IMG/VR virus record: IMGVR_UViG_3300030090_003995
Location: 1-64,000 of that record
Source of the DNA: a virus
Length of the DNA stretch: 64,000 nucleotides
Direction: 5' to 3' (one strand)
Part shown: piece after piece, positions 4,207 to 46,829 of the stretch
How positions within the stretch are numbered: the stretch's first letter is position 1
Layout of the letters: the number at the start of each line of letters is the position of its first letter
The notes under the pieces: generated by a model
Seen by the model: only the letters and a program-made list of their open reading frames with translations
Database searches by the model: none
Told to the model about the DNA's origin: nothing
Program-made: the position numbers and the translations under genes

Positions 4207-4221
4207 TCAAACATCCTGCAA

Positions 4222-10827: not shown

Positions 10828-10828
10828 A

Positions 10829-20596: not shown

Positions 20597-22031
20597 TGCT
20601 TTAGATTTTGCATCTGAAATGGATATGGAGATTTCTAAATCTTCATTTCCATATTTTTTCCAACATATTCTTGGATTTGACTTTACGTCTTTTCATCAAG
20701 AGTGGTTAGATTTAATGCACAGTTCAAAACGTGCAGTTATTATTTGTAGTCGTGACCACGGAAAGTCCGTATTTATGCACTCATGGGCAGTATGGAATTT
20801 AGTTTTTCAACCACCACCATTTCAAATGCTATATATTTCTTCTAACCATAAGCAGACTATGGTTCACATGAGAGATATTGATAAGTTATTTAACAAACCT
20901 GCCCTTAAAAGGTTTAGACCAAGTAGAGGATGGGCGGTAGGAAACATTACACTTACTAATGGTAATTCTATTCTTGAGCGTTCAGTTGGTTCACAGATTC
21001 GTGGTTTACACCCACAAGAAATTATTATTGACGACCCTCTAAAGGAATTTAGTCTTAATGGTATTAAGCGTGTAACTGATTGGTTCTTTGGTGATATGAT
21101 TCCGACTCTTCACCATACTGCCTCATTAAGAATGATTGGCACACCATTTACATATACTGATATTTTCACAGAACTTGAAGAAAATGAAGCGTACACCGTT
21201 AGAAAATACCCTTGCCTCAATCAATTAAATGAACCGCTTTGGCCTGAAAGATGGGATTATGATGCGCTAATGCAGCGTAAGTCTGAGGTGGGTTCTTTAA
21301 AGTTTACAAGAGAATATATGTGTATTCCAGTATCAACAGGAACTTCTTTATTTAACCCTGAACATTTAGATGAATGTAAAAAATTGGGTAAGGATAGAAT
21401 CTTGCTTATGCGGCAAAGAAAGAGTCAAGGTTATAAATACTTTGTTGGTGTAGACCCTGCTATTTCTACCGATGGGGATTACAATGTTATTTTAGTTTTA
21501 GAGGTAGATGAGAATAAAAATAAAACTGTGGTGTTTGTAGACCGTTCAAAAAATGTAGAGTTTAGAGAAAATATTAATAAGTTAAAATTGATTGGGCAAT
21601 TATTTCAACCTGAGTCTATATTCTTAGAAACTAACACTTTCGCTAAATCCTTTACACAGGAACTTAGAAATGAAACCGACCTCAATGTTCACGATTTTAC
21701 AACTACTAGAAAGAAGAAAGAAGAAATCATTCTTAATTTACAAATGAATATAGAAAACCACAAAATAATATTTCCAAGAGGAAGCGAAGAAAGCAGAAGG
21801 GTCACAGATAGCATTTTAGAGGAATTATCAATGTTTGCCATCACCGACACCGGAAGGTTTGAAGGCGTAGGGGCGCATGACGATTTGGTTATGGGGCTTG
21901 CCCTTGCTAATGCCGCAACTCATCAATTGATGGATAATTTTATATTATTGGATGATATAGATATTTTTGGCACTAAAGAACAAAAACCTATTAATTCTAT
22001 AGGAGGTGGAGTACTTGGTCTTAATTTCTAA
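20580..22031 (+). CDS. terL: Terminase large subunit
   Basis: Walker A SRDHGKS, Walker B IIIDD, GTP coupling motif, nuclease VGVDPA and HDDLVM. Confidence 0.95.
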   Translation: MKVEIDALDFASEMDMEISKSSFPYFFQHILGFDFTSFHQEWLDLMHSSKRAVIICSRDHGKSVFMHSWAVWNLVFQPPPFQMLYISSNHKQTMVHMRDIDKLFNKPALKRFRPSRGWAVGNITLTNGNSILERSVGSQIRGLHPQEIIIDDPLKEFSLNGIKRVTDWFFGDMIPTLHHTASLRMIGTPFTYTDIFTELEENEAYTVRKYPCLNQLNEPLWPERWDYDALMQRKSEVGSLKFTREYMCIPVSTGTSLFNPEHLDECKKLGKDRILLMRQRKSQGYKYFVGVDPAISTDGDYNVILVLEVDENKNKTVVFVDRSKNVEFRENINKLKLIGQLFQPESIFLETNTFAKSFTQELRNETDLNVHDFTTTRKKKEEIILNLQMNIENHKIIFPRGSEESRRVTDSILEELSMFAITDTGRFEGVGAHDDLVMGLALANAATHQLMDNFILLDDIDIFGTKEQKPINSIGGGVLGLNF

Positions 22032-24054: not shown

Positions 24055-24222
24055 ATGTTAGGAATTGTGTTAGCATCATTAATTATTTTGGTTGCCATTT
24101 TTTGGTATAATTTTTGGGTTTCATTAAATGACCTTGTTGATGGTGTTATTGAAGTTGAGGCTGAGGAAATAACAGAAGAGTTATGGAAAAGTCATAAATT
24201 ATTAAGGAGGATTCATAAATGA
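24055..24222 (+). CDS. 55-aa membrane protein
   Basis: MLGIVLASLIILVAIFWYNFW...; overlaps the portal ATG. Confidence 0.5.
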   Translation: MLGIVLASLIILVAIFWYNFWVSLNDLVDGVIEVEAEEITEELWKSHKLLRRIHK

Positions 24223-25862
24223 GTGAGAAAAGAAGATGGAGGATTGGGAACTTTTTGCGAAGAAAAACTCCTAAACCTGGAGACCGTAAAGTATTTAATT
24301 TAGGAATACAGGAAAGAGAAGCAAATTATTTAATGACAACACCTCTATTATATAACGTTGCATATAATTCAGTTATTACTCGAACCTGTATTACGCAATT
24401 GAAAAATGAAGTGTTTAGACGTGGTTATGAATGGAGAAAGAACTTTGCTCATAAATGTCAAGATTGTGGAAAACAACATGAGAAGCCAGTTGAAGAGTGT
24501 TCAGAATGTGGTTCTAGAAATTTAAAGAAACCTGACCAAAAACAATTAAAGTATGCCAAAAATATGTTTGAGGGTTATGTCAATAAGTCTAATCAAATGT
24601 TGATTGATGTTCTTAAAGAACTTGAAGACGATTTAAATATTGTCGATGATGCTTACCTTGTTCTTGTTAAAGAGTATTATTTAGATGGTAACGGTGAAAT
24701 TAAATTGCACCGTGTTAAAGAAATCTATCGTGCTGACCCAGTTACTATGGCTATTTATTCCGATGAAGTTGGAGAAAGAGGAACCAAAGGGTTTACTGCT
24801 TTGAATGATAGAAATTATATTTCAGAAAATCAATTTGAGTGTCACCCTGAAACACAAGAAATTCTTTATCCTATACATTATGTAAATAGAGTGCATGGTG
24901 AAGACCAGTTCTTTATTGAAGGTGAAGTTTTACACTTTAGTAAATATTCTCCAACAAGGATGTATGGGCAATCTCCTGTTATTACATTGTTTAATCATAT
25001 TACTACTCTTATTGCTATGGAGAACTATGTTAATCAGTCTTATACTAAAAGCCGTATGCCTAAAGGATTGCTCGCTGTTCAAACTAGAAACATTGAATCA
25101 ATGAGAACTTTTTGGCGAGCGGTTAAAGAAAAGATGGAAGAAGACCCACACTTCATTCCTGTTATGGGTATTGAAGCAGAAAATGGAAAGGGTTCAGTTG
25201 AGTGGATTAAATTTATGGATTCATTGAAAGAGATGGATTATGTTGCAGTTAAGGAAGATTTGCGAGATAGGATTGCTGCTTTCTATGGGGTTAGTAAAAT
25301 CTTTATGGCAGACAATTCATCAAGTGGTGGATTGAATAATGAAGGTATGCAAATTCTTGTTACAAATCGTGCGGTAGAAATGGCACAGAACGTTTACAAT
25401 CATTATGTCTTCCCTTGGTTTGTTGGAGAATTTGGAATTACAGATTGGAAGTTAGTATTGCCACCATCAGAAGAAGAAGATGAAATTGCAGTAATGCGAA
25501 AGCGAGAAATTGAAGTTAATATTGCCGCTTCAATTAAAAATCTTGGATTTATTGTTGATATGAATGAAGATGGTGAATTTACATTCAAGAAAGAACCACC
25601 TGCACCACCGGCAGGACAACCACAACAAGGTGATAAAGGTGATAAAGGCGGTAAAATAGAAACCGACCCTTATGCGGGAACAAATATTGATGCAAGTCAA
25701 TTAGGGCAAATGCAAGAACAAATGATGGCGGGTGGAAAAGATTCATCCGGTGGAGGCACAAGGAATAAACCCTCTATGAGCGTTGGACCTGATAAGAGAG
25801 CCACAGGCTTACCAAAAGAAGCCGGAAACCAAAATGTCGATAAAAGAACAGAAAGAAGGTGA
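24219..25862 (+). CDS. Portal protein with zinc-ribbon insertion
   Basis: Position after TerL; YGQSP, PKGLL, IAAFYGVSKIFM portal-like motifs; CQDC..CSEC insert. Confidence 0.9.
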   Translation: MSEKRRWRIGNFLRRKTPKPGDRKVFNLGIQEREANYLMTTPLLYNVAYNSVITRTCITQLKNEVFRRGYEWRKNFAHKCQDCGKQHEKPVEECSECGSRNLKKPDQKQLKYAKNMFEGYVNKSNQMLIDVLKELEDDLNIVDDAYLVLVKEYYLDGNGEIKLHRVKEIYRADPVTMAIYSDEVGERGTKGFTALNDRNYISENQFECHPETQEILYPIHYVNRVHGEDQFFIEGEVLHFSKYSPTRMYGQSPVITLFNHITTLIAMENYVNQSYTKSRMPKGLLAVQTRNIESMRTFWRAVKEKMEEDPHFIPVMGIEAENGKGSVEWIKFMDSLKEMDYVAVKEDLRDRIAAFYGVSKIFMADNSSSGGLNNEGMQILVTNRAVEMAQNVYNHYVFPWFVGEFGITDWKLVLPPSEEEDEIAVMRKREIEVNIAASIKNLGFIVDMNEDGEFTFKKEPPAPPAGQPQQGDKGDKGGKIETDPYAGTNIDASQLGQMQEQMMAGGKDSSGGGTRNKPSMSVGPDKRATGLPKEAGNQNVDKRTERR

Positions 25863-26311: not shown

Positions 26312-26530
26312 ATGACAAGTAGAGAAGATGTAGCAAAAATTCGTAGGGAACTACAAGAAACTGAGAGAGTGCTAACTTTAGCAGAACAGAAAAAAACTAT
26401 CAATAAAAATCATGCACCTGTGCAATTACCTGATAAAAAGACTCATTATAATGAGAGGACTTCATCCAATCAAATTGATTATGTTGTTCATTTGCCTAAG
26501 AAGCAAAAGCGTAGCGAAAATAAGTGGTGA
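26312..26530 (+). CDS. Hypothetical protein
   Basis: 72-aa ORF within the operon. Confidence 0.6.
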   Translation: MTSREDVAKIRRELQETERVLTLAEQKKTINKNHAPVQLPDKKTHYNERTSSNQIDYVVHLPKKQKRSENKW

Positions 26531-26535
26531 GTAAA

Positions 26536-29500
26536 ATGACATTACTAAAAGCCTATCTAATGAATAAGCGTGACCCGTTTACATTAGCGAAGGCTTTCCT
26601 TGATGTGCTTAAAGATGAACAAGCATGGAGAGAAGAACAATTAGGTGAGTTAGGTGCAAAATATTTCAGTGATGCGATGGAGTTTTATGAAGATGAACTT
26701 GCTGAAATCAATGGTAAGATTGTAGAAAATAATTCTAAAATTAAAGAGATTAGAACAAGACTTGCCCCTAATTATACTTTTGAAGATAAAATTGAGTATG
26801 AGGGTCCAGATGGTGAAACCTTTATTCGTAGAGAAACTAGAGGTCTTACTGATGAAGAATCTAATTTGGAGCGTTTAGAACTAGAAAGTGCTGAATCTCT
26901 TAATAATGATTATGCTGAAATAAGGGAGTCTGTCAACGGTCACTTATCTGATTTAACTACACACTATACTAATTTAACAGGTGAGGAATACGATAGAAGT
27001 GATGAAAATAAAATACGTTTGACCTTAAAGGGGTTAAAAATATTAGCAGATAGAATAGATGATTTAGGTGAAATTAAGCCACCCGATTCTATAAAACAAT
27101 TGGATGCTAATTTAGAAAATGCTAAGAAACTTTACGAAAGGTCATTAGAAGAATTAAAATCAGATTTACAGGAAAAAAATGCTCCCCAAGATATTATTAC
27201 TAATGCAACTGCTAAATTAAAACGCAAGTTTGATACAAAAATGTCTACATTAGAATCATCAAGAAGTGGTATGTCTAAGAGTTATGAATCTTTACTATCT
27301 CAAAAATATAAACTTGAACAAAGAATTATTAGAGGAAAAAAAGATTTAGAAAGAATGGGTATTGATGTAAAGGAATACGGCCCGAAATATTCAAAAGAAT
27401 CAGACTTTAAAAAACCACAGTCTAAACCTGAAACAGCGGAAGAGAAGAAGGCTAGAGAAGAAAAAGAAGAACAGGAAAATCTTGAAAGAAGAATAGATTT
27501 GAAAAAACAAGCGTTAGTCCGTTTAGCAAAAAGAGCCCTTGAATGGGAAAAACAAGGTTTTATTCCTGGCCCTAAATACAAAGCGGGAAGAAGAAAAACT
27601 ACGGGAAAATTAGATAGAGATTATGCTCGCCCAATTAAAAGTGGAAAATACAAAGGCATTACCCTTAAAGGCGATGAGGTAGAATTAGATGCAAAAATGA
27701 CTAAACTGGTAAATGATAGCAATATTGGTGTCAATGAACTTATTAGTCAGGTTAATAAACTTAATCCAAATTTAACTATTTCTCTTCCTGAAACACAAAA
27801 AACTGTTGACGTAAAGAGGGATATTAGAGGGCTTCCAATAAGAGATAAGGATGGGAATGAAATACCAGTTAAATTTGGTGAAAATAAACCATACACTCAA
27901 GAAGAAATATCTCGCGCTAAGAGTCAAGAACAGAAAGAATATATGGTGCGTATGAATAATTTAGGTATCGGTAAGGGAAAAAGAAAAGTTAAACAAACCG
28001 CTGGTAATTTAAAAAATTGGAAAGAGTGGAGAGAAGAGTTTTCAAGAGTAGTAAGTGATGAAAATCTTCAATTAATGCGCAACCAATTAAATGATTTCTT
28101 TAAAGATTTAGACCCTGAAGTTATGCGTTTATTTGATAAAGATGCACATTCCACTGACACTACTAGATTTGGTTTGGCATCAAGCAAAGAAGGTTCAGAT
28201 GGTAACATTAAATGGACTAAACATGTTAGCAGAAGAAAAACATTACAAATATTAGGTAAGATTTTTTCTGAGGCACTAAGGACTGATATTTTATCTGATA
28301 TACAAAAAGTTAATGCAGAGAAAATTCTGAATGCTATTGACGAGGAGTTAGGGATTTCTGGCGGAAAACAAATTAGAGAACAACCGGTTGCTGACCAGCA
28401 AGTTACTAATATGATGGAATTACTACAAGATTTTTATGATGAGACTCAAATTCTTTTAGAATCTGATACTGATGATGAATGGAATGAAGAACCAGTTGAA
28501 AGGTTAGAAGATTTAACTGAAGAAGTTGCACAATTATTACAGGATATGGATGAAGAAAATCCTTCACAAGAAGATTATGTTAATTTATTAATTAGATACC
28601 ATTTAATAAATGTCACAATTAGGGAATTGGGTAGAGAATTACCAAATCAAGCCTTACAAGCAAAACGTTCTTTAAGAGAATATTTAGATTCATTAGAGAA
28701 TAGATATGAAGATATGTATGGTAATATTGCTGATGATAAGTTACAATCTTTGCAACGTCTTGCTCAAGATTCAACTGATTCCGAAGAAGATAAAAGAAAA
28801 TTAGAACAAGAAATTAGAAGAACATCTACTAAAACTTCTTGGAAACCACCTAAAGGTTATCATGATAAAGATGATACTGTTAGAAGAAGAGAAAGGGTAA
28901 AATTACATAAAGCAGAATTACAGATGCATATTGATATATTTAAACGGTTATCTGAAGGTGGAGAGGTAAAGATAACTAAACCTATTAGACACCCTGACCA
29001 AACTGATAAAGAATATGCAGAAGCAAAACGTAGGTTTGAACCTAAAGTAATTTCAGGTAAAAAAATTCCTAAAAGGCAAGGTAATCAAAGACCTCTAAAA
29101 CAGTTAGCAGAAATGGTAATTCCTAAATTTAAAGTGGATATGGAAAAATCTAGACAAAAGCGATTGTATGGTAAAATTTTAACTCAAGAACGTATTGATG
29201 GTATTAGAAATAATTTGGTTGCAGAATTAGGAAGAGGTGAAGAAGTTGATATTGAGAATTTTGATAGTTTATATTCTTCAGCGGTAGATATTATAGGGCC
29301 AAAATCTTATACTGATAGATATAAACAGGTTAAGACTCTAACAGGTAAAGAATTAGAACAACTTGGTTTAGAGGATGTTAAAGAAGAGTTTTTAGCAAGA
29401 AGAGTTAGAGGTGAAGGTACTGATGACGAAGAATTTATTCCTGATTCTGAAATTAGTGATGCCGATGAATTTGATGCCGCTAATACATTAATGGACCAAG

Positions 29501-29916
29501 CAACTGCTATGGTTATGAATTACAAAGATGACGATGGTAAGATTGTTGAAATACCTGAAGATGCAGCGCCTTATTTAGAAATAGTAGAACAACGATTTAA
29601 ACAGGCTAGAGATGAGGCTTTAAAGGTTCAAGCAGAAAGTGAAGATGATGAACTTCCTAAAGAGTTCCGTTCTAAATCTGGCACAACAATTAATTTTGAT
29701 GAGTGGTTACAAAATATAGAATCGGCAAAGGCTGAAGCGCAATCTAAGAAGTTAGATGAAAGAAAATATGGTGAAGATAAAAAGGTTAAGAGAAAACCTA
29801 AGAGACCTGTTGTTAAATTACCAGAAACAAGAACAATTGATGAAGAGAGAGAAAGAGGAGAAAATTTGTTAGACCCTTCAATTCTAAGAAGACCTGAACA
29901 GGAGGAAGAAGAATGA
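26536..29916 (+). CDS. Large charged coiled-coil protein (~1126 aa), candidate internal head protein
   Basis: Long ORF between portal and protease; MTLLKA..FLDVLKD N-terminus. Confidence 0.7.
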   Translation: MTLLKAYLMNKRDPFTLAKAFLDVLKDEQAWREEQLGELGAKYFSDAMEFYEDELAEINGKIVENNSKIKEIRTRLAPNYTFEDKIEYEGPDGETFIRRETRGLTDEESNLERLELESAESLNNDYAEIRESVNGHLSDLTTHYTNLTGEEYDRSDENKIRLTLKGLKILADRIDDLGEIKPPDSIKQLDANLENAKKLYERSLEELKSDLQEKNAPQDIITNATAKLKRKFDTKMSTLESSRSGMSKSYESLLSQKYKLEQRIIRGKKDLERMGIDVKEYGPKYSKESDFKKPQSKPETAEEKKAREEKEEQENLERRIDLKKQALVRLAKRALEWEKQGFIPGPKYKAGRRKTTGKLDRDYARPIKSGKYKGITLKGDEVELDAKMTKLVNDSNIGVNELISQVNKLNPNLTISLPETQKTVDVKRDIRGLPIRDKDGNEIPVKFGENKPYTQEEISRAKSQEQKEYMVRMNNLGIGKGKRKVKQTAGNLKNWKEWREEFSRVVSDENLQLMRNQLNDFFKDLDPEVMRLFDKDAHSTDTTRFGLASSKEGSDGNIKWTKHVSRRKTLQILGKIFSEALRTDILSDIQKVNAEKILNAIDEELGISGGKQIREQPVADQQVTNMMELLQDFYDETQILLESDTDDEWNEEPVERLEDLTEEVAQLLQDMDEENPSQEDYVNLLIRYHLINVTIRELGRELPNQALQAKRSLREYLDSLENRYEDMYGNIADDKLQSLQRLAQDSTDSEEDKRKLEQEIRRTSTKTSWKPPKGYHDKDDTVRRRERVKLHKAELQMHIDIFKRLSEGGEVKITKPIRHPDQTDKEYAEAKRRFEPKVISGKKIPKRQGNQRPLKQLAEMVIPKFKVDMEKSRQKRLYGKILTQERIDGIRNNLVAELGRGEEVDIENFDSLYSSAVDIIGPKSYTDRYKQVKTLTGKELEQLGLEDVKEEFLARRVRGEGTDDEEFIPDSEISDADEFDAANTLMDQATAMVMNYKDDDGKIVEIPEDAAPYLEIVEQRFKQARDEALKVQAESEDDELPKEFRSKSGTTINFDEWLQNIESAKAEAQSKKLDERKYGEDKKVKRKPKRPVVKLPETRTIDEERERGENLLDPSILRRPEQEEEE

Positions 29917-30266
29917 GTTGGAAAAAGATATTAAAATTTCAATCTGACGGTTTAGATGAACATAATGTGGATGAACTTCTTGTTCATCCAATTGAGCGAT
30001 TAGGTTTCCGATTACAAACGAATGAGTCATATATAGTTGGTGATAATCCAGAATCAGGAGAAGCCGGATGGAATACCGGACAGTATTCTTTGGATTTTGC
30101 CCACACAACAGGAACGCGATATACTGTAAAAAGGACACATATACGTGCTACCCCCACATCTCCCCAATATTATATTTTTAGGGGTAATGAGGGAATTGTT
30201 GGTAAACCTTTCAATTATATAGAAGTAGTAGATTGGTTTGAACACGAAGCGGAGAGTTTATCATGA
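29913..30266 (+). CDS. WxxILK-tag hypothetical protein
   Basis: MSWKKILKF. Confidence 0.7.
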   Translation: MSWKKILKFQSDGLDEHNVDELLVHPIERLGFRLQTNESYIVGDNPESGEAGWNTGQYSLDFAHTTGTRYTVKRTHIRATPTSPQYYIFRGNEGIVGKPFNYIEVVDWFEHEAESLS

Positions 30267-30595
30267 CGTGGTTTGAAGTAATTAAAGAAGATAGTCCGGC
30301 TTTGGCTAGTCTATCACAAAAAGAAAAAAAGAAACTCAAAAAGGTTTTGCAAGCAGCCGAACCTTCAGAATACTTTGGTCAAGACTTTACAAGAATGGGA
30401 GAATTGATTGAATTAATGAGAGAATTAGATTTGGTTAAGGGAGATAAAAAAATGCAAAAGAAAATGAAATCTATTTCTGAGCAAAATGTAGATGTTGTCG
30501 CTATGGCTGCTAAATTGCGAAAAGAATATGAAGAAATGTATAGACAACTTCGACAAATTGTATATCCTAAAAGCAAGGGGTTGAGAAAGAAATGA
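30263..30595 (+). CDS. WxxILK-tag helical protein
   Basis: MTWFEVIKE. Confidence 0.7.
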   Translation: MTWFEVIKEDSPALASLSQKEKKKLKKVLQAAEPSEYFGQDFTRMGELIELMRELDLVKGDKKMQKKMKSISEQNVDVVAMAAKLRKEYEEMYRQLRQIVYPKSKGLRKK

Positions 30596-30855
30596 GTTGG
30601 GAAAATATAATTAAAATGAGAAGAATTATTCCTGAAGTAGAGGAAGTCATGCCCTATTATAATGGGTTAGATGAATTACTCACTATGGTTAAAAAAGATA
30701 TGGAAGAAGTTGTAAGTTTTATTATGAATGATGATTTAGAAAGGGCCGAAATTAAGTGGGATAAAATGAAAGGAGGCATTCTCGATTTAGAAGGAACCTT
30801 TACTGGAATTAAAGACGTTAATGCGTTTATTACTAGATTATTAGGTGATGCTTAA
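30592..30855 (+). CDS. WxxILK-tag hypothetical protein
   Basis: MSWENIIKM. Confidence 0.7.
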   Translation: MSWENIIKMRRIIPEVEEVMPYYNGLDELLTMVKKDMEEVVSFIMNDDLERAEIKWDKMKGGILDLEGTFTGIKDVNAFITRLLGDA

Positions 30856-30997: not shown

Positions 30998-31243
30998 ATG
31001 AGCGAAAATAAAGATGAAACGCTAGAAGTTCTGAAATTATTAGTGGATAAAATCCAAAAATTAGAAGAAACTGTCTATAACAATGACAACGTATTAATGA
31101 AAGCGGGTCTTGTAAAGGTTGATAGTCCAACACCAAGTATGGGCGGTGGAGATGGGGTTATTCCTGATTCTAAGGCTATTGCTAAGATGAGTTGGGATGA
31201 AATCAATACATTGGTTACTCGATTAGGAGGCGGAACAATATGA
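30998..31243 (+). CDS. Small protein with scaffold-like C-terminus
   Basis: IPDSKAIAKMSWDEINTLVTRL matches the protease/scaffold C-terminus IPSGDDLAKMDWNEVHLAMARL. Confidence 0.7.
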   Translation: MSENKDETLEVLKLLVDKIQKLEETVYNNDNVLMKAGLVKVDSPTPSMGGGDGVIPDSKAIAKMSWDEINTLVTRLGGGTI

Positions 31244-31758
31244 ATACTGAAGAAATCTTGAAAAAGTTAAAAGAGATTCAAGTCGAGGCGATTAATAATC
31301 TACATAGTGATGATAAAGAAAGTCAACTTCAAGTCGCTGATAAAGAAAAATTACCGAATGAAGAACTTGTTGGTGGAGAAGAAGTTAAGATTAAAAGACC
31401 AAAGGCTGAAAATGTTAAAGTTCCTGATAGTTTAAGTCGAACAACACCAATGGCCGGCCCAACAAAATTCAATACGCCTGAAGAGGTTTATACAAGTGGT
31501 GAAAAGAAAAGCATTACAATTGAATCAATCCAAGCACAATTAGACGATTTAAAAAAGGATATGAATGCTGATAGATGGGGCGGAGAATTAGGTAATTTAT
31601 TAATGGAGGCTGAATCATATTTAACTGAGCATGAGCAAAACAGGCGAGAAGGTAAAATTAAATATGACCAACAGGATATTGATGAATTAAGGATTGAAAT
31701 TAATAGAAATCCTCCTAGCCCTGGCAATATTAGAAATGTCTTAGCCCGATTTCCGTGA
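31240..31758 (+). CDS. Hypothetical protein
   Basis: MNTEEILKK; 172 aa. Confidence 0.65.
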   Translation: MNTEEILKKLKEIQVEAINNLHSDDKESQLQVADKEKLPNEELVGGEEVKIKRPKAENVKVPDSLSRTTPMAGPTKFNTPEEVYTSGEKKSITIESIQAQLDDLKKDMNADRWGGELGNLLMEAESYLTEHEQNRREGKIKYDQQDIDELRIEINRNPPSPGNIRNVLARFP

Positions 31759-31763
31759 TTAGT

Positions 31764-34319
31764 ATGCCATTAAGCGGTCTTAGTTTTAGAAAAGAGAAAA
31801 ACCCTCTTTCTAGGCGTATTCAACGCCTATTTGAACAGATTAGGGCCGACTATCTATCTGCTAAACAACAACCTAAAGAATTCGCTAAAGATTGGGAAAA
31901 GGCAGTTGATAAACTAATAAACATTTATTCAGATATTGACGACCTTTCTTCTCAATTAAAAACTGTATTAGAAGAGAAAGATTTGAATTCTTCTGAAGCG
32001 AAGGATGCTACCTCTTCAACTGCCCAAAAAGTGTATAATGCTGTTAAAACTTTAAGATACGACAGTGACTACGTTAGAGACCCCTTTGTTAAAAAGTTTG
32101 GTAAAGAGGTTCTTGAGAAATTATTAGAGAGTAAAGCCCATCTTGCTCTATTTATCCATTGGTGTCTTAGAAATGACCGAAATGCACTTCCTAGAGAGTT
32201 TTGGGAGGAATACCTGCCCGAAGGTGACAAAATAACTGACGGGTATGAGGGTCTTGACCTACATGAGAAGGCGATAGTACCCTTCATTACTGAACATTAT
32301 GGGGATGGAAAAAATAGTCAAGGTGTTAAAGCAAAAGTTAAGGGGTCTATGGCCTTATTTAAGGATTTATACACACGTTTCTATTCCAAATCCGAGTGGG
32401 CCGAGTTACTTGGCCTCGATATTGAGAAGTCTGAAAAAGATAAAAGCGATATTAACTTCATGGTTCCAAATAAACCAATGTATAGGATTTTTGAGATTGA
32501 TGATATTAAAGAGTTACGCGGTTTTACTGGAGATTGGGTTGTTCAAGAAAAATATGATGGTATGCGAATACAATTACATAAAATTGATAATAAGGTGAAA
32601 ATCTTCTCATTTAATGGTAATGATATTACAGATAAATGTCCAGAACAAGTTAAAATTCTCAAAGAAAAGAAGTTTGGGGAATGTATCTTAGATGGGGAGT
32701 TAATGTTATCAACGAAAGAAAAGCCTCTTCCCCGCGCTCAAGTTATTGCTCATGTATTTAAGAATAAAGAAGTTGATGGGGAGTTAAAGGTTCATGTTTT
32801 TGATATTATGCGCCATAATGACCGTGATTTAGCAGATTCTCCTTTACAAGATAGAATTAACATTTTATTTCAAAATTATTCCATCCATTCGGATGAAAAA
32901 TTAGCGTTCCCATCTAAGAAAGACACGCGAATTGCAGATAGTTTAGAAGATATTCAACGTTATGGTAAAGAAATTATGAAAATTCCAACATCTGAGGGTG
33001 TTGTCATTAAAGATTTAACTTCTACTTACATTAAAGGTGCGAAAAAGAATCCTAAGTGGATAAAATGGAAAAAATTTGTTGATTTGGACCTTATTGTTTT
33101 AGATAAGAAAACAACTAAGTCTAATCTAAATTCTTATACTCTTGGGGCTGGCCCATTAACTATGGAACAGGCTCGCAGTTTACAATCTGAGAAGATAAAT
33201 GATAGATATTACTTAAATGTTGGGAAGGCTCTTAATACTAAGATAAATGTTGAAGTTGGTAAAATTGTTCGTGTGACTGTTGATGAAGTTAAGAAGAATA
33301 GAAAGGGCCAATATCGAGTATTTACTGCAAAAGTCATTGAGATTCCTGAAGTCGAACATCCTGATAAATTAATCACTTTAGAGTTGTTAGCCGGTGAAGG
33401 TGAAGTTAAAAATTATAAGGCTAAAGCATTAGAAAAGGGATATTCTATTACCGACGATATACATGGTGAAACAGAAGTTATTCTTAAGCATGATTTAGAC
33501 GGCTTTACAATTTATGGATTTAAAGATAATAACTTAATGTCAAAGAACGCGTTAGTAGATTTAGACCTTGTTAAAGAGCAAATTTCTGAATTAATAACAA
33601 AATATTCTAATCAAATGAAATCATTAATTATGACCATAATTAGAAGAAATGGTAATAAAATGACTTTAGAAGATATTATAGAAGAAGGGTTAAGAGATAA
33701 GAATTTTAAGAAGATTTATGAAAAACACTATGGTAGTCCTAAAGAATTAGGAAAGGCTATGAAAGATGACAAAATGGATGGTATAATTTTATTAGACAAT
33801 ATTCATTTTTCTACAGCAAATGAGAAGGAAGCCGAAAAAGTAGAAGTTGAGACTAACCCTGATGTTATTGTTAAGGAGTATAAAACTCCTGAAAAGTATA
33901 GAAAAGGTAATTTTAAATTGTATCTTAGAAAAGATGAAAACTTAAATTTAACCTTTCAATTAGGGGAAGAAGTTATTGGTTGGGAAATTCAAATTGACTC
34001 AATTGATAATGTATTTGATTTATTTGGTAAAGCAGGTAAGTACCCTGCTAGGATTCAAGAAACAGTTTCAAAGGAAAAACTAATTGATAAAGGTTCTGTT
34101 GAGTTAGGCGTACAAAGACATGGTTATCACGAATACATCTTAAAAGGCGAAAAGTTTGATACTAAACTTCATTTAAGAGTTGTCCCATTAAAGGACCAAA
34201 AACAATGGATAGCGTTTTCTAGTTTTGTAAAGGAACCTGTTGAACCCTCCACAGATGATGGTATATGGGATATTAGAGAGGATGAGAACAAGGATTTGTC
34301 CTTTGAAAGTCTTGAATAG
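31764..34319 (+). CDS. lig: ATP-dependent DNA ligase with N-terminal extension and C-terminal LigD phosphoesterase-like domain
   Basis: Motifs EKYDG (I), LDGEL (III), VFDIM (IIIa), EGVVIKD (IV), WIKWKK (V). Confidence 0.92.
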   Translation: MPLSGLSFRKEKNPLSRRIQRLFEQIRADYLSAKQQPKEFAKDWEKAVDKLINIYSDIDDLSSQLKTVLEEKDLNSSEAKDATSSTAQKVYNAVKTLRYDSDYVRDPFVKKFGKEVLEKLLESKAHLALFIHWCLRNDRNALPREFWEEYLPEGDKITDGYEGLDLHEKAIVPFITEHYGDGKNSQGVKAKVKGSMALFKDLYTRFYSKSEWAELLGLDIEKSEKDKSDINFMVPNKPMYRIFEIDDIKELRGFTGDWVVQEKYDGMRIQLHKIDNKVKIFSFNGNDITDKCPEQVKILKEKKFGECILDGELMLSTKEKPLPRAQVIAHVFKNKEVDGELKVHVFDIMRHNDRDLADSPLQDRINILFQNYSIHSDEKLAFPSKKDTRIADSLEDIQRYGKEIMKIPTSEGVVIKDLTSTYIKGAKKNPKWIKWKKFVDLDLIVLDKKTTKSNLNSYTLGAGPLTMEQARSLQSEKINDRYYLNVGKALNTKINVEVGKIVRVTVDEVKKNRKGQYRVFTAKVIEIPEVEHPDKLITLELLAGEGEVKNYKAKALEKGYSITDDIHGETEVILKHDLDGFTIYGFKDNNLMSKNALVDLDLVKEQISELITKYSNQMKSLIMTIIRRNGNKMTLEDIIEEGLRDKNFKKIYEKHYGSPKELGKAMKDDKMDGIILLDNIHFSTANEKEAEKVEVETNPDVIVKEYKTPEKYRKGNFKLYLRKDENLNLTFQLGEEVIGWEIQIDSIDNVFDLFGKAGKYPARIQETVSKEKLIDKGSVELGVQRHGYHEYILKGEKFDTKLHLRVVPLKDQKQWIAFSSFVKEPVEPSTDDGIWDIREDENKDLSFESLE

Positions 34320-34355
34320 GTTTCGCTTTAAGTAGTCAATCGGAGATGGTGATTC

Positions 34356-35693
34356 ATGGCGAGCGCAACGCTTCAACAAAGTGCGACAATTAGAACAAAT
34401 AATCCTTCTGATTTTCAAATAATTAAATCTGATGATTTATACATTGGTGGATATGCTTCTATTGAATTAGTAGATAAGCAAAACGATTTAATTACATTAG
34501 AAGCATTAAATGATGCTGTTAAAAAATTCATGCAAGCACCAAGATACAGAAACGTTATGAATAATCATTCAAATGTTCAAGTTGGTGAAGTAGTCAAAGA
34601 ATATCGAGATAAGACAGGAAAATTATGGAAAACTGATGTTGATGATGTTGGTTTTTTTGTTGTAATAAAATTAAGAGATGATATTGAGAAGGCTAAAGAA
34701 GTTAGTCGGGACATTAGAAAAGGTACTCTTCGTTCTTTCAGCATTGGGGGTCAAGCACTCGAAAAGCGTAAACGAGAGAATGATGAATTAGGAAAGTTTA
34801 ATGAAATTAGTAAATTGGAATTGCATGAAGTAACTATTTGTGAAAAAGGCATTAATCCAGAAGCAAAATTTGATATTCTAAAACAAGACAGTGGTGATAA
34901 CATGACCGAAGTTACAAAAGCGTTAGAAGAACTAAACTCTCTCTTAAAAGAAATTAGAGGAGAAAGTGTATCAAAAGCCCCTAATCCAAAATCGGAAGAG
35001 GGATTTGAAATGCAAGAATTACCGGAAGGTGAAGAAAAAATGACAAGTGAATATTTAGACACTGAAGAAGAAACTGAAGAATCACCTGAAATGCTAGAAA
35101 TGGCAGAAGGTGAAGAAGAGGAAATGATGGAATTAGCCTCAAGCGAAGAAGATGACCCTGAAAAGGAATTAAAGAGCAAAACAAGCCATACCCATGAAAC
35201 ACAATTAGTGGATGAGGCTGGTCTAGAAGTTGTAGTGGGTGGACAACCTTCAACAAAACATGGACAGCGTAAAGATATGGGGATTCCTGCCGGAACTGAA
35301 ACCAAAAAGTCCATTTATGGTGGAGATACACCAACACTCGATTTGAGTCCTGAGAATCTTGAAAAGGCTTATGCTGAATTTAAGGCTGAGCAAATGGAAA
35401 AAATGGCTTACAATGATATTAAGTCGTCTTTCCAAGCACGATTCGATGCTGAAGTTGCAGCAAAAGCAGATTCAATCGAGAAGGCAAACTATGACCCACG
35501 AAGTGAGGTCAACGAACTTAAAAAGCAGTTTAGTGAGTTAATTGACACACTAAAGGGTGAGAAGGAAAATGTTATCCGAAAGCAACAAGAGGCTGTTGAT
35601 AACCTAAACATTCCTTCAGGTGATGATTTGGCTAAGATGGATTGGAATGAAGTCCATTTGGCTATGGCTCGACTAGAGCGCAATTTCCGCTGA
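34356..35693 (+). CDS. Prohead protease (HK97-type) fused to scaffold
   Basis: GYAS, DKQND, SFSIGG, LHEVTIC..GINPEA motifs; acidic coiled-coil C-terminal half; precedes the capsid gene. Confidence 0.9.
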   Translation: MASATLQQSATIRTNNPSDFQIIKSDDLYIGGYASIELVDKQNDLITLEALNDAVKKFMQAPRYRNVMNNHSNVQVGEVVKEYRDKTGKLWKTDVDDVGFFVVIKLRDDIEKAKEVSRDIRKGTLRSFSIGGQALEKRKRENDELGKFNEISKLELHEVTICEKGINPEAKFDILKQDSGDNMTEVTKALEELNSLLKEIRGESVSKAPNPKSEEGFEMQELPEGEEKMTSEYLDTEEETEESPEMLEMAEGEEEEMMELASSEEDDPEKELKSKTSHTHETQLVDEAGLEVVVGGQPSTKHGQRKDMGIPAGTETKKSIYGGDTPTLDLSPENLEKAYAEFKAEQMEKMAYNDIKSSFQARFDAEVAAKADSIEKANYDPRSEVNELKKQFSELIDTLKGEKENVIRKQQEAVDNLNIPSGDDLAKMDWNEVHLAMARLERNFR

Positions 35694-35721: not shown

Positions 35722-37086
35722 ATGGTAAAATATATTAACACTATCGCTGACCTTGAACAAGCCACTTACGGTACGTTTGGTGGAAATAGCGACATTCTGA
35801 AAAGTGGTGGGTCTTTACTCGGACTTCACACAGCACACGATACAAACGCAACAAACGCATTTGTTGGAACTGCGGCTTCAAACCTCAGTAACTTGTATAA
35901 CGTAATTTATGGACAGAAAGTTTGGTCAATGCTCAATCAAGAGATTAACCCACTTTCTATTCTTCCTAAGCGACCATACACTTCAAGCGGTTGGCGCGTA
36001 TTAATTGACCGACCTGCTGGTGGAAGTGCTGCGGCTTTTGCGATTGGAACGCAAGATATTACTGCAACTCCAACTGCTGATATGAGCGCACCTTCAGCCG
36101 ATAGTATCGGTGGTGTGAAAGAAAACCACGCTTTGAATAGTGTTGGACTTTCTGAACTATCTCCAGAATATGCGACCTTATTTATGAGTCCTAAGACTGT
36201 TGCGCATATGTTCGGTTATTCCGAAGTTGCAGCAGAAATGGCGAAAATTGATGATGGTATCGGTGATATTCGTAACATTGTTCGTGAAGATATGGGTAAA
36301 TTCCACGCTGAGGTTCAGTCCAAAATGCTTGTAATGCCTCTTGAAAATTACGACCACTCAAGTTATGCAGATATTGAATTAAACTACACTTCATTATTGA
36401 AGATTGTAGCAAGTAGTCAAGAAATGGAGGCTATGATTGATGCAGGTATGCACGGTTCAATGGGTGGTTCTTCATCAACAGGCGGTTTAGTAGACCAAAT
36501 GAGTTATTTGTATGGAAACAATTCTCGTGATTTGGTTGCAAATGCTTACAATGAATCATATATGGATGCTTATGTCAATTATGGTAGTGGATATGCTGCT
36601 GGCGATGTTCGAGCATTAACTCTAACTTTGCTTAATACTACTTTGCAGAACCTCCGAACAAACGGTGGTACGCCAAAGTGTATCTTAACTGGATATGATA
36701 CAATTCAAGCAATTGCTGATTTGTTACAGTCCCAAGAACGATTTATGGAGCGAAAAGAAATTGTTCCTACACATAATGGTGTTCGTGGTGTAAAGGGCCG
36801 AGAAGTCGGTTTCCGAGTAGCGACATATTTCGATATTCCGCTAATTCCATGTAAAGATATGGCAAGCACAGGTGAAGCAACAGGTAAACTAAGCGATTTA
36901 TTGTTCTTAGACACTGACCATCTTTGGATGGCTGTAATGAAACCAACTCAATACTTTGAGGATGGTATTAATTCTGGAAACCCATTCGGTGTTGGCGCAC
37001 TTGGAAACAAGGCCATGTTCCGAACAATGGGCGAAACTGGCTGTACTTTCTTTAAGGGACAAGGCAAGATTACTAACGTGAACTGA
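35722..37086 (+). CDS. Major capsid protein (HK97 fold)
   Basis: Follows the protease/scaffold; 454 aa; strong RBS; C-terminal ATYFDIPLIP..LLFLDTDHL capsid-like pattern. Confidence 0.88.
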   Translation: MVKYINTIADLEQATYGTFGGNSDILKSGGSLLGLHTAHDTNATNAFVGTAASNLSNLYNVIYGQKVWSMLNQEINPLSILPKRPYTSSGWRVLIDRPAGGSAAAFAIGTQDITATPTADMSAPSADSIGGVKENHALNSVGLSELSPEYATLFMSPKTVAHMFGYSEVAAEMAKIDDGIGDIRNIVREDMGKFHAEVQSKMLVMPLENYDHSSYADIELNYTSLLKIVASSQEMEAMIDAGMHGSMGGSSSTGGLVDQMSYLYGNNSRDLVANAYNESYMDAYVNYGSGYAAGDVRALTLTLLNTTLQNLRTNGGTPKCILTGYDTIQAIADLLQSQERFMERKEIVPTHNGVRGVKGREVGFRVATYFDIPLIPCKDMASTGEATGKLSDLLFLDTDHLWMAVMKPTQYFEDGINSGNPFGVGALGNKAMFRTMGETGCTFFKGQGKITNVN

Positions 37087-41149: not shown

Positions 41150-41802
41150 GTGTTAGTTATTCACCTTCAAATTTAATTGGGATGGGCCAAGGTCAAAATT
41201 CAACAATGGGATTCACACCATTACAAATTGCTAGAATGCCCGGCCCTATTTCACCATACGAATATAAAAATATCAAAGAAAAAAAACAATTAAAGGAGAT
41301 TCGTAAAGTACTCAGTCCCGAGAAAAAGAAATTTTTATTTTTAAAATACGGTTTTAAATTCAATGTTAAACATAGATGTGTTGTTTGTGGTTCATATCAC
41401 GAATGGGAAGCATCAGATACAATGAGGCCACCAATTCCATTATCAGAGGTTCATAAAGGTAGACCATTAAAAGGTACATTATGTCCTAAACACGCGTCAA
41501 TGTACATTCAAATGGAGACTTTAGAACAACAAATTCTCGCAAACAATCACGGTTTAGAATTTAAAAAATACATTCCAAAGGCGAAAGTCCCTAAAATGAT
41601 GCAAAGGGGTCCATTAACAGATTTATCGCCAGCAGACGTTACAACTCTAGTATCAGCAGGTTGGGTTGTTGAACCACCAAAAGGAACAAAAGAAACACCA
41701 CATATGCAATATACTAGAATTATGTTGGAAGTTCAAGGGAAACTTTCACAGATACAAAAAATTATTCCTTTAATTGAGGTTGAAGAAAATGGTGAGAAGT
41801 AG
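41146..41802 (+). CDS. Zinc-finger protein
   Basis: CVVC...CPKH. Confidence 0.65.
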   Translation: MSVSYSPSNLIGMGQGQNSTMGFTPLQIARMPGPISPYEYKNIKEKKQLKEIRKVLSPEKKKFLFLKYGFKFNVKHRCVVCGSYHEWEASDTMRPPIPLSEVHKGRPLKGTLCPKHASMYIQMETLEQQILANNHGLEFKKYIPKAKVPKMMQRGPLTDLSPADVTTLVSAGWVVEPPKGTKETPHMQYTRIMLEVQGKLSQIQKIIPLIEVEENGEK

Positions 41803-42442
41803 TACATTAAACTCGGCACTGGCGGATTCTCAGAATCAAAGTTTTAAGAGCATGAACAATCTCTTAACTTTGCAAGAGAACCATGTAGAAGAATTTTTCC
41901 AATATCACGGGCCTGAATTTATGAATGCCCTTGAAAAGTTAATGGAAGATGTTGTTCAAAGAGTAGTATCAAATATGTTAGCAAGTTTGGAATTTGTTTT
42001 AAACCCAGCATCAAACCATATTACATTACAAGAAAAATGTCTTTCAGAATATCAAAAAATTACTCAAGAAAACATTGACTTAGATATTCAAACTATTCTT
42101 GCTACGGCAGTAAATAGTGAAGTTATTCATCAACGTAAGATGGCTAAACAACAATATCTTGAAAGTCAAGGATTTAGCCCGCAAACAACTGGACAACAAT
42201 ATACAGTTGCTCAAGGTGTTGGAATGGGCGCAACATCCGGTGGAATGGCCGGAGGTGTAATGGGTATAAATCAAGGAATGCAGAGTGGTTATCCAATTCC
42301 GCCTAATGGTTACGACCAAATGAATAATCCTTATTGGATTGACCCACAAACAGGCCAAATGTCATATACCCCGCCTAGTGGTGGAATTGGCTTAGGCCAA
42401 AAAATGGCTAAAGCAGCAGCATGGGCAAAGTGGCTAGTGTGA
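41789..42442 (+). CDS. Hypothetical protein with Gly/Gln/Pro-rich C-terminus
   Basis: GYPIPPNGYDQMNNPYWIDPQTGQ; amphipathic end KAAAWAKWLV. Confidence 0.7.
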   Translation: MVRSSTLNSALADSQNQSFKSMNNLLTLQENHVEEFFQYHGPEFMNALEKLMEDVVQRVVSNMLASLEFVLNPASNHITLQEKCLSEYQKITQENIDLDIQTILATAVNSEVIHQRKMAKQQYLESQGFSPQTTGQQYTVAQGVGMGATSGGMAGGVMGINQGMQSGYPIPPNGYDQMNNPYWIDPQTGQMSYTPPSGGIGLGQKMAKAAAWAKWLV

Positions 42443-42456
42443 GGGGGTAAAATTGG

Positions 42457-44226
42457 ATGGCTCTCAAATATTCTTGGTTTAAACTTGACAAAGATGAAAA
42501 GTTTGAAAGCCATAATTTTGAGCAACAAGAGATTACTGAACCCAAATTAAAATATATTTTTGGTTTGTACTTGTTTGATTTAAAAAATAAAGCGGAGTTA
42601 GATATTGTTCCTGCTAGATTAAAAGATATTAAATCTAGAACTATTGGCGACTATACAGATATTGACGTTAATAATCCGCCTGATTCTGTTTGGTCTGATG
42701 ACCATACCACAGAATTGTTGAGCAAAATTGATAATGCTAGGCGAAGCCTTCTTCAAATGGATTTAGATGATGCGATTAAAAATTATACCGGTGCAAAACA
42801 TAAAGTAAATGTTGGTGGAAAAGAAGAAGAAATATTAGAAGCGTTATATTTAGATGTAGATGAAAAAAGTTGGGATGTTGAGGATGTTGTCAACGAGGAA
42901 TTACATGAAATGTTTTATAGACCAGTTTTTACTACTAAAGATGAAAAATTAAAGAAAAAGCAATTGATGTTATTAAATCCTATAGAGGTTGAAAATAAAC
43001 AAGATTATAAGAGATTAGTTAAATTAGATTTAGATGATTGGCAGAAGATAATTGATTCTAATATTAATATGCCTAAATTTATAAATATTGTTAAAGGTAA
43101 AAAGGGAAATAAAATAACCCTCACATTAAATATAGATTTCTCAAGTTCAGATGCACAAATTAATGCTGTTAAAAAAATCTTTCCCGGCCAAAAAGTAAAA
43201 TTTATGCCTTCTAGAGAAGAACTTAAATCTACTTCAACTGTTGCACAAATTAGAATGCCAGCGCAAAATGCTGAAGGGGCTAAAGGAGAGTATAAACGTG
43301 AATTGGCAAGTCCTGACGAAATTAGAGATTACAATTATCACGCCTTGGAAGATGCTGTAGATTTAAATGAAGATGAAGAAGGGTTAAAAAATGTATTGAT
43401 GGCACTAAATGAATTTTCAAAAGAATCACAGATACAAGAGTCTCTACCGCCCCTAAAAACAACAAGAGTCAAAACTACTTACGGAGATATATTAGTCCAA
43501 GGTGTTCCATTTGATGCTGAAGATTACATAGATGGTTTAGAAGTTGAAATTTCTGATAAAGATAGTGGTGAAATACTCGAAACAGTTTTTGGTACTTTAG
43601 AAGAATTGAAGAAAGACCCTAGATTTGAGAAAGTTTTGGCTAAATATGAAACTTCTAAAAGAAAAGCAGATAGATATATTGATAAACTAAAAAAGGATGC
43701 TAAAAAAATAAGAGATAATTTAGCAAAAACTAAGAAAAAAAGACAAGAGATTAACTTCACTGGCACTTCAAATGTAGCACTAAAAGAAATGTTTCAGAGC
43801 GAAAGTCAAGAGTCTTTAAAGGATATAACATTAAATTGGATAAGAAATATAAATTCTGATGGTAGTTTGTATAGATTATTTCAACAAATACTTTTACCAA
43901 TGAGTGTAACTTCTCAAGGTGATTACAAAATAGTTATTCAATTGAATAAGAAAGGTTTAAATTATTCCGGACAAGTTAAAAGGTGGCAATATATTCAAAC
44001 TGCAGAATTAGATACTAAATTTTTAAGTATGCCTTCAGGCCGCCAATCAAGGGTTAAATTAGATATTGGTAGAAAAACCGATAAAGGAAAAACTGAAAGT
44101 ATGCGGGGTGATTATCGTACAGATATGGGTTTAGGGTATAATCCAGTAAGACAGTTTTTAACTAAATTTGTAACAAATAGGCTATCAAAACTAGATAAAG
44201 CAATCGAATCTTTAAGGAGGAATTAA
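42457..44226 (+). CDS. Hypothetical protein (589 aa)
   Basis: Long ORF; no recognisable motif. Confidence 0.7.
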   Translation: MALKYSWFKLDKDEKFESHNFEQQEITEPKLKYIFGLYLFDLKNKAELDIVPARLKDIKSRTIGDYTDIDVNNPPDSVWSDDHTTELLSKIDNARRSLLQMDLDDAIKNYTGAKHKVNVGGKEEEILEALYLDVDEKSWDVEDVVNEELHEMFYRPVFTTKDEKLKKKQLMLLNPIEVENKQDYKRLVKLDLDDWQKIIDSNINMPKFINIVKGKKGNKITLTLNIDFSSSDAQINAVKKIFPGQKVKFMPSREELKSTSTVAQIRMPAQNAEGAKGEYKRELASPDEIRDYNYHALEDAVDLNEDEEGLKNVLMALNEFSKESQIQESLPPLKTTRVKTTYGDILVQGVPFDAEDYIDGLEVEISDKDSGEILETVFGTLEELKKDPRFEKVLAKYETSKRKADRYIDKLKKDAKKIRDNLAKTKKKRQEINFTGTSNVALKEMFQSESQESLKDITLNWIRNINSDGSLYRLFQQILLPMSVTSQGDYKIVIQLNKKGLNYSGQVKRWQYIQTAELDTKFLSMPSGRQSRVKLDIGRKTDKGKTESMRGDYRTDMGLGYNPVRQFLTKFVTNRLSKLDKAIESLRRN

Positions 44227-44228
44227 TA

Positions 44229-45323
44229 ATGGTTAAGTTATCATCACCATCTGACTATACGGCAGTAAATCCTAACTATGCTATTGGGCAAGGGTATTAC
44301 ACTAACGAAGATAAAATAGCAGATTTACTACAAATACCATCTTTCTCCGCCACGACCAATCCATCTTACGACCAAGTGGGCGACATTATTAAGGATGTAG
44401 AAGACGAAATAGATGAAAAAACCGGAATGTCGTTTAGACCAATCATTTACGCGAATGAGATGCACAATTTTCGTAGTCCAACGGGCGGGTCTTTGCGAAA
44501 GTGGCCCTCATGGTGGTCAGACTACGTTGGTTTTTGCCAACTAAACCACAGACATATCCGCAAAATGATTAGAATAGAAGTTTGGCAGGGAAATAGGTGG
44601 ACAGACCTTTGTTCGGCAACTGCAAAGGTTAGCGTGTCTAATGACCAAGTTGGTTCTAGCGGTTCTATTACACTAACATTACCTAATAACGTAACATTCG
44701 TTTTAAATAAAGGAACGACAAATAGCCAATACAATAATGCCTATGGTGCTAAAACTATTGCTCAAGAAATTTGTCATTTAATAAATGAAACCTTTCCTTC
44801 AATAACTGCTAGATTTACAGGTGCTACTGCTTCTAAATCTTTAGTGGGTTCAGATGGAACTAATGTTTCTGATTTCTTTTATGCTACTGTAAATACAGAA
44901 GATGAAACTGAAGTTATAATTTCTTCATTATTACCCGGCGATGATGGGTCACAATGTTCTATTGCAGTAACAGGTTCGGGTTTAACTAAAAGCGATTTTA
45001 CAGATAATGAAGAAATGAAACGTCTTGGTACATGGTGGAAAGTAGATGAAGAAGGCCGTATTTTCTTTAGAACCAAATTTCCTTATATGGAAAAAAATTC
45101 AATTCGTATGACTTATATTGCAGGTAATCCTAGAGTTCCCGGAATTATTTCTCAAGCAGCAACAAAAATGTCAGCGATGGAAATTTTACGGCATGATGAC
45201 CAAACAGTGTTAATTGCAGAATCAGGTTCACAAATTGATATTAAAACTAAATACGACTTGTTAAAACAAGAAGCCGCAGAATTATTGAAACTTACAAGAG
45301 AAACTATCTTTTTGATTGAGTGA
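44229..45323 (+). CDS. Putative head-tail adaptor/neck protein with insertion
   Basis: Position; EDEIDEKTG and YIAG..VPGIISQAATKM resemble gp6/gp15-type adaptors. Confidence 0.6.
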   Translation: MVKLSSPSDYTAVNPNYAIGQGYYTNEDKIADLLQIPSFSATTNPSYDQVGDIIKDVEDEIDEKTGMSFRPIIYANEMHNFRSPTGGSLRKWPSWWSDYVGFCQLNHRHIRKMIRIEVWQGNRWTDLCSATAKVSVSNDQVGSSGSITLTLPNNVTFVLNKGTTNSQYNNAYGAKTIAQEICHLINETFPSITARFTGATASKSLVGSDGTNVSDFFYATVNTEDETEVIISSLLPGDDGSQCSIAVTGSGLTKSDFTDNEEMKRLGTWWKVDEEGRIFFRTKFPYMEKNSIRMTYIAGNPRVPGIISQAATKMSAMEILRHDDQTVLIAESGSQIDIKTKYDLLKQEAAELLKLTRETIFLIE

Positions 45324-45328
45324 TTAAT

Positions 45329-46801: not shown

Positions 46802-46829
46802 TAAGTAAGTAAAAAAAAGGTGATTAAAA

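Follow-up and report, generated by a model that had tools for sequence, protein, structure and literature searches.

In phage λ (gpC and gpNu3) and in herpesviruses (UL26 and UL26.5), a protease and a shorter scaffold share a capsid-binding C-terminus, and the protease later frees the scaffold. Encapsulins use cargo-loading peptides, short terminal peptides that dock cargo on the inner face of an HK97-fold shell. The HK97 gp4 protease is said to have a C-terminal capsid-targeting tail, reportedly described by Duda, Oh, and Hendrix in 2013. The gp245 protease of SPN3US has a C-terminal targeting propeptide (PMC7411985). The C-terminal helix-and-hook of the 80α scaffold binds the N-arm of the capsid protein, and the 72-residue CpmB of SaPI1 has the same tail and binds the same site (PMC5644958). 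In T4, the capsid targeting sequence (CTS) of IPI-III and Alt is an N-terminal leader that binds the scaffold core and is removed by gp21 (PMC7411985, PMC9026906). The DNA analyzed here, called the window, comprises the first 64,000 nucleotides (nt) of IMG/VR virus record IMGVR_UViG_3300030090_003995, and it encodes two proteins that end in the same short module: a protease-scaffold of 445 amino acids (aa) and a separate 81-aa protein. We think it probable, with some reserve, that this 25-residue module serves two assembly proteins as their common procapsid-docking tail and that the N-terminal leaders ("tags") found on many other proteins of the same virus are separate, removable propeptides. 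The features on which the argument turns are as follows.

34356..35693, + strand: prohead protease (S78) fused to a scaffold-like C-terminal domain, 445 aa (PF04586, PHROG)
35610..35690, + strand: tail module of the protease-scaffold, residues 419-445, IPSGDDLAKMDWNEVHLAMARLERNFR
30998..31243, + strand: gene for the 81-aa "mini-scaffold," an open reading frame (ORF) with a ribosome-binding site
31160..31240, + strand: tail module of the 81-aa protein, residues 55-81, IPDSKAIAKMSWDEINTLVTRLGGGTI
35722..37086, + strand: HK97-type major capsid protein, the presumed docking partner (Pfam SU10_MCP, PHROG major head protein)

The protease matched PF04586 with an E value of 2e-9 (38.2 bits; cutoff, 21) and the PHROG head maturation protease with an E value of 2e-18. 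A sequence-only reading of the window had quoted the C-termini of the protease-scaffold and the 81-aa protein, and both are present as it described. It had further proposed that the protease carries a scaffold-like C-terminal domain whose tail is duplicated on the small separate protein. We sampled 80 related viral contigs, which yielded 77 protease tails and 49 small-protein tails, with both tails present in 46 loci. The two window proteins aligned with each other directly (BLASTP; 9 of 22 identities; E value, 2e-4), and comparison of the ortholog alignments with hhalign paired residues 55-79 of the small protein with residues 419-443 of the protease-scaffold (probability, 96%; E value, 2.8e-9). 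The consensus of the resulting 25-residue module is P-x4-[IL]-[AS]-x-M-x-W-x-[DE]-[IV]-[HN]-x-[ML]-[VA]. Global profile alignment gained no score outside the tail, and a local match between the N-terminal helix of the small protein and protease residues 343-354 had an E value of 0.07. Since there is no demonstrable homology beyond the tail, we concluded that the proposed duplication holds for the 25-residue module alone and not for the whole scaffold domain.

The most distant homologue of the small protein led us to a sister magrovirus lineage, in which the protease is 38 to 40% identical to that of the window. Both tails are nearly unchanged there, the small protein ending in ...EMSWEEIHDMA and the protease in ...MSWDEVHALA; in the majority sub-clade of relatives, the tail reads MDWSDIHK. 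In the 46 loci with both tails, the two genes are syntenic, and the small gene always lies 2.6 to 3.6 kb 5′ of the protease gene (~3.1 kb in the window). The distance from the tail Trp to the C-terminal end is 10 to 15 residues in each protein in these loci and 10 to 17 residues across all relatives, the sister lineage included. M428 and W430 were invariant in 28 protease-scaffolds from the two lineages, and P420 and H434 were conserved in at least 90%. Conservation of the Trp among orthologous scaffolds, on which the earlier proposal leaned, was thus borne out; of the KMxW motif that had been singled out, the Met and Trp are invariant, whereas the Lys varies. In the small protein, M64 and W66 were invariant across 35 sequences. 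A set of 24 diverse library representatives of the small protein includes one with Phe at the Trp position and two in which the tail is missing or the sequence is truncated. In scans of all loci, the tail was confined to the protease-scaffold and small-protein families, and a search for short proteins with the protease tail returned only three fragments of the protease gene itself.

AlphaFold2 predicted the same shape for both tails, a short helix, a break, and a helix led by the Trp. In the protease-scaffold, these elements are residues 422-427 and 430-444, and they follow an acidic, disordered middle (~205-325) and two long helices (332-377 and 381-416; predicted local distance difference test [pLDDT] values, 70 to 90). 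The position of the tail and its predicted helical shape fit the coat-binding tails of known scaffolds such as P22 gp8, the 80α scaffold, φ29 gp7, and herpesvirus UL26.5, as the sequence-only reading had supposed. Upstream of the tail, residues 400-404 of the protease-scaffold are NVIRK (35553-35567), where most relatives have ETILK or SIIK. This site belongs to a conserved [IV]-[ILAR]-K-[AKS]-Q-[EQ]-E segment ~25 residues before the tail Trp, which is a full I-L-K site in the majority sub-clade; conservation of its P2 residue fails in some clades. By analogy with the herpesvirus M-site, a cut here could release the scaffold from its docked tail.

In the 81-aa protein, a coiled-coil-like N-terminal helix (residues 3-26) is followed by a conserved segment and then by a disordered linker that leads into the C-terminal tail. 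The conserved segment is L33-M-K35-[SA]-G37-x-V39 plus SPTP, and an alignment of 35 members of the family has 12 invariant columns. The AlphaFold2 model has helices at residues 3-26, 32-35, 58-62, and 66-76; the first of these has block pLDDT values of 69 to 87, and the last begins at the Trp. The gene is preceded by a ribosome-binding site, GGTGGAGGT, and overlaps both adjoining genes at its start and stop. The Gly-Gly(-Gly) that ends the protein (TTA GGA GGC GGA; 31213-31243) doubles as the Shine-Dalgarno sequence of the next, overlapping gene. Because of this overlap, a DNA-level constraint, and not a role in the docking motif, may explain why "GG" recurs where both tails end in relatives. 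A profile search of 1.8 billion clustered representatives returned 49 members of the family, all of them viral, and no fused forms. The protein had no relatives in Pfam or PHROGs, only weak coiled-coil matches among PDB sequence profiles (GCN4; E values, 0.16 to 0.5), and only unnamed viral clusters as matches in the ESM Atlas. In all 46 + 28 loci examined, the gene lies in synteny as part of the virus's own core set and is not encoded by a satellite element.

These features allow a comparison with the systems described above. As with gpC and gpNu3 of λ and UL26 and UL26.5 of herpesviruses, a maturation protease and a shorter putative scaffold end in the same tail. However, the shorter protein in those viruses arises from a nested in-frame start and shares a long identical stretch with the protease, whereas here it is encoded by a separate gene ~3.1 kb upstream and only 25 residues are homologous. 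The likeness to HK97 gp4 and SPN3US gp245 lies in a short C-terminal segment on an S78-type protease, which in those phages directs entry into the procapsid; HK97 differs in having a capsid-protein delta domain in place of a separate scaffold, with no second protein that carries the protease tail. SaPI1 CpmB resembles the 81-aa protein in being a small helical protein (72 versus 81 aa) with an N-terminal helix, which oligomerizes in CpmB, and the C-terminal tail of the main scaffold. CpmB, however, is the product of a parasitic island and shrinks the capsid in competition with the phage scaffold, whereas the 81-aa protein is a conserved core protein of its own virus. The motifs are also unrelated (RIIK in 80α and CpmB versus M-x-W-x-[DE]-I-H here), and the binding that is established for CpmB is for the present tail putative. 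A capsid-binding tail shared by protease and scaffold is a classic principle; what is new here is that the shared tail sits on a separate, tiny, conserved gene. By analogy with these systems, we infer that the tail binds the capsid protein and that the 81-aa protein serves as an auxiliary scaffold.

A second motif, [IL]-L-K, recurs in the same proteins at the following positions.

34419..34427, + strand: I22-I23-K24 at the N-terminus of the protease, a predicted cleavage site (K24 invariant, I22 conserved in at least 90%)
34869..34883, + strand: F172-D-I-L-K176 at the end of the protease domain, a predicted self-cleavage site that would part the protease from the scaffold
35794-35802, + strand: ILK of the capsid protein, residues 25-27 (N-terminal alignment of 50 relatives)

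At the N-terminal site of the protease, the window has QIIK24 and the sister lineage GLLK. At the end of the protease domain, F172, I174, L175, and K176 were invariant in 28 sequences of the two lineages, and the sister lineage has FRILK. The N-terminal segment of the capsid protein is conserved as YINTIxDLE...[IL]LK, and the site before the body of the protein is SDILK27 in the window, NxLLK in relatives, and SELLK in the sister lineage. Thus, [IL]-L-K is kept in both lineages at three processing-type positions, namely, near the start of the capsid protein and on either side of the protease domain. The same motif also ends the leaders described below, and from this pattern of occurrence it is probably the cleavage motif of the prohead protease.

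About 23 of 117 called genes begin with M-(x)-W-x-x-[IV]-[LI]-K. All are on the structural strand, between 7470 and 46011, and three lie directly upstream of the 81-aa gene.

29913..30855, + strand: three tagged genes directly upstream (MSWKKILK, MTWFEVIK, MSWENIIK)

The tags had been quoted earlier as MSWEDI and MSWDDI. MSWEDI does not occur in the window, although it is common in relatives; MSWDDILK and MGWEDILK are present. The Ile, Leu, and Lys codons of the tags vary synonymously, which points to selection on the tag peptide. A nucleotide-level origin as the sole cause of the tags is ruled out by the same variation. Codon use within the tags is nevertheless biased: AGT encodes 11 of the 13 tag Ser residues (27% genome-wide), and ATA encodes 8 of the 14 tag Ile residues (21% genome-wide), as at 8236, 25867, 38893, 40122, and 40395. 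This bias could reflect cassette-like spread or constraints on mRNA 5′ ends. Apart from the tags, a sequence resembling them, ESWWNTLK, occurs at residue 131 of a 185-aa ORF (10778-11335) and is the second-best internal match to the tag profile; this ORF may be a fused or decayed tagged gene.

The sequence-only reading held that cargo proteins dock by mimicry, the tag imitating the coat-binding tail of the scaffold. In its developed form, this explanation has the tags occupy the docking pocket of the scaffold tail by means of their Trp and an aliphatic residue at +3 from it, so that cargo is loaded by imitation and the tag differs from the tail chiefly in being cleavable (Leu-Lys versus His-x). 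Within the window lineage, the resemblance is real. The best internal match to the tag profile in the window genome is MSWDEINT in the tail of the small protein (rank 19 of 27,042 positions, after 18 tags), and of the top 20 non-self matches to the tail profile, 14 are tags. M, W, D, I, and K are common to MDWSDIHK, the majority sub-clade tail, and to the tag MSWEDILK. Moreover, the tail is older and more widely spread than the window-lineage tag, which would fit the tag being a copy. The tags form one family, however, so that the 14 matches count as a single observation, and the protease tail falls outside the top 45 matches of the tag profile. The tag Met serves as initiator and stands at no fixed distance from the Trp (MW, MxW, MxxW), the near-invariant His at +4 of the tail is replaced by Leu, and the tail residues that precede the Met have no counterpart. 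The D-I-L-K of the tag matches the conserved [IL]-L-K sites of the capsid protein and protease; if these are cleavage sites, the acid-Ile after the tag Trp would belong to the cleavage consensus, and its match to the [DE]-[IV] of the tail would need no mimicry.

The sister lineage separates tag from tail. A DNA pattern search for MxWxx[IV]xK found 16 and 11 matches in two window-lineage genomes versus 0 and 0 in near-complete sister-lineage genomes, with 0 for control patterns. Instead, the structural arm of the sister lineage has, at its corresponding left end, ~10 genes that begin with M-N-P-F-[DE]-x-A-W-x-[LV]-L-K.

1731-7356 and 34112 of sister-lineage genome G001 (genes L112-L117), and 41369-48892 of sister-lineage genome G003: sister-lineage leader genes

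A leader of the F-x-x-A-W-x-L-L-K type was found in all five sister-lineage genomes searched (7, 1, 9, 4, and 1 matches; controls, 0). The profile of these leaders placed the lineage's own tails 338th and 2,081st of 31,466 positions; no leader, in turn, was among the top 20 non-self matches to the tail profile. A tag of the encapsulin type would be expected to share the determinants of the shell-binding peptide wherever both occur, and in the sister lineage it does not. The two leader types have in common W-x(1-2)-[ILV]-L-K; that is, with two leader forms and one tail, the shared parts of the leaders are the Trp and the predicted cleavage motif. Because the tail is constant between the lineages while the leader has changed, the case for mimicry is weakened. 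The earlier claim thus stands for the likeness of tag and tail in the window lineage but does not extend to the sister lineage, which keeps the tail and has leaders unlike it, and we regard docking of cargo by imitation of the tail as doubtful. In a narrower version, the W-x-[DE]-I-L-K leaders of group-B-like magroviruses would be cleavable copies of the W-x-[DE]-I-H-x docking helix, one shell pocket would both anchor the scaffold and address more than 20 changeable cargo proteins, and the tail His would prevent premature cutting. This version, too, strikes us as unlikely; if true, it would mean that an archaeal virus encodes an encapsulin-like code for loading cargo.

As the cross-lineage comparison suggests, propeptides like the T4 CTS are a likelier reading of the leaders than mimics of the tail. 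Like the CTS, they are short N-terminal leaders on unrelated proteins, each ending in a motif that is here predicted to be cut by the prohead protease. They differ in number and form, with four tagged genes in T4 versus ~23 here and two lineage-specific leader forms; the binding partner of the CTS in T4 is the scaffold core rather than the shell. The parallel with encapsulins, which the sequence-only reading had drawn, is looser: encapsulins have neither scaffold nor protease, their peptide motifs are unrelated, and contact between tag and shell is for the present virus only a proposal. On the propeptide reading, the leaders would be cleaved and the tagged proteins would be packaged.

Our preferred reading, in which the tail docks two assembly proteins and the leaders are separate propeptides, draws on the homology, conservation, and fixed synteny of the two tails, on the S78 protease context beside the capsid gene, on the confinement of the tail to these two protein families, and on the change of leader between lineages. 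According to this reading, the protease-scaffold and the small coiled-coil protein would each present the tail on a flexible or helical spacer, and one site would draw both carriers into the assembling shell. The likeliest place for that site is on the HK97-type capsid protein, at its inner face or its conserved N-terminal arm. Once the shell is assembled, the protease would probably cut the [IL]-L-K sites that flank its own domain and the one near the N-terminus of the capsid protein, and perhaps also L-M-K35 of the small protein; these cuts would release the shell from the scaffolds. The leaders on ~23 other proteins would be a separate, lineage-variable device in which the Trp and the cleavage motif stay constant, in the manner of T4 CTS propeptides.

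Several points weigh against this reading. In the window lineage, nothing in the proteome matches the tail profile better than the tag consensus, and chance plus the cleavage motif account only roughly for the likeness; tag and tail may share a minimal W-x-x-aliphatic anchor. In favor of the reading, the two tails of one genome are slightly more alike than those of shuffled partners (similarity, 0.402 versus 0.364 ± 0.011; reached in 1 of 5,000 shuffles), but this co-variation test ignores shared ancestry, and few independent changes lie behind it. Finally, the AlphaFold2 models have mean pLDDT values of only 67.8 for the 81-aa protein and 49.3 for the protease-scaffold, the latter reaching 70 to 90 only across the C-terminal 115 residues (330-445).

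The tail might instead bind a partner other than the capsid protein: the portal, another scaffold molecule (in self-assembly of the core), or the groove of the protease, as a noncleavable regulatory pseudosubstrate. Scaffolds of other phages also recruit portals, the helix of the small protein is coiled-coil-like in its weak GCN4 matches, and D-I-H-K in the majority sub-clade tail is one residue away from D-I-L-K. The tail Lys is not conserved in the window sub-clade or the sister lineage, however, and the substrate-like reading therefore does not generalize. In addition, to our knowledge, every C-terminal tail so far characterized as common to a protease and a scaffold has the capsid protein, or the delta domain of that protein, as its binding partner. 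We consider another partner quite unlikely. That the two C-termini are similar by chance, by composition, or through a DNA-level constraint from downstream ribosome-binding sites, without shared protein function, is effectively refuted by the conservation data: Gly-Gly codons at many tail ends do overlap the Shine-Dalgarno sequence of the next gene, but the core M-x-W-x-[DE]-[IV]-H sits 5′ of these codons and is invariant across two lineages in two unrelated genes, with the profile E value given above.

Few viruses that infect archaea of the ocean surface are as abundant as magroviruses. We know of no magrovirus that has been cultured; the shared tail is a concrete handle on their capsid assembly. 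In the magrovirus papers that we searched, there is no mention of leaders or of scaffold tails. The virus studied here is a tailed archaeal virus of the magrovirus type with an 88-kb genome, and the window covers its structural arm. Other genes of the head module and its surroundings are listed below.

20580-22031: large terminase
24219-25862: portal
31240..31758, + strand: 172-aa conserved neighbor, translationally coupled to the 81-aa gene (N-terminus, MNTEEILKK)
31755..34319, + strand: 854-aa protein with an ATP-dependent DNA ligase domain, within the head module (Pfam PF01068; E value, 1.1e-31)

The capsid gene starts 29 nt 3′ of the protease-scaffold gene. On the opposite strand, outside the window, the genome encodes a split family-B DNA polymerase, replication factor C, a second archaeal-type ligase, and a thermosome. 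Magroviruses have two ligases, one of them located in the structural module, and in group B1 the polymerase is split; placement of a ligase inside the head module is a hallmark of magrovirus groups A and B (Philosof 2017, PMC5434244). The split polymerase and the two ligases, one in the structural module, are in agreement with that description. No ligase domain was detected in the structural module of the sister lineage. The nearest named relatives of the protease are from haloarchaeal tailed viruses (32 to 34% identity across the protease domain). The nearest of these, HVTV-1 (33% over the protease domain), has neither the tail nor the tags, and the haloviruses are without either feature.

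The N-terminus of the 172-aa protein, MNTEEILKK, ranks 24th in the tag profile; its E-E-I-L-K is tag-like but lacks the Trp. The equivalent gene in the sister lineage encodes 177 to 206 aa, beginning ...EVTEMLKK. The 172-aa protein may be another processed core protein. A GNAT-family acetyltransferase gene (19721-20596) lies in the structural arm, between a 792-aa ORF and the large terminase. Runs of three to four Glu residues end many otherwise unrelated proteins of the window (…DEEE, …SEEEE, …GEEEE, …QEEEE), encoded at 973-1512 (−), 2708-3406 (−), 3703-4206 (+), 5732-6226 (−), and 26524-29916 (+). The same is true at 82461-83207 and 86842-87183 of the full genome (G000) and in sister-lineage genome G001 (…GGEEE, …GDEEE, …ILEEEE). 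The C-terminal Glu run could be a second shared signal.

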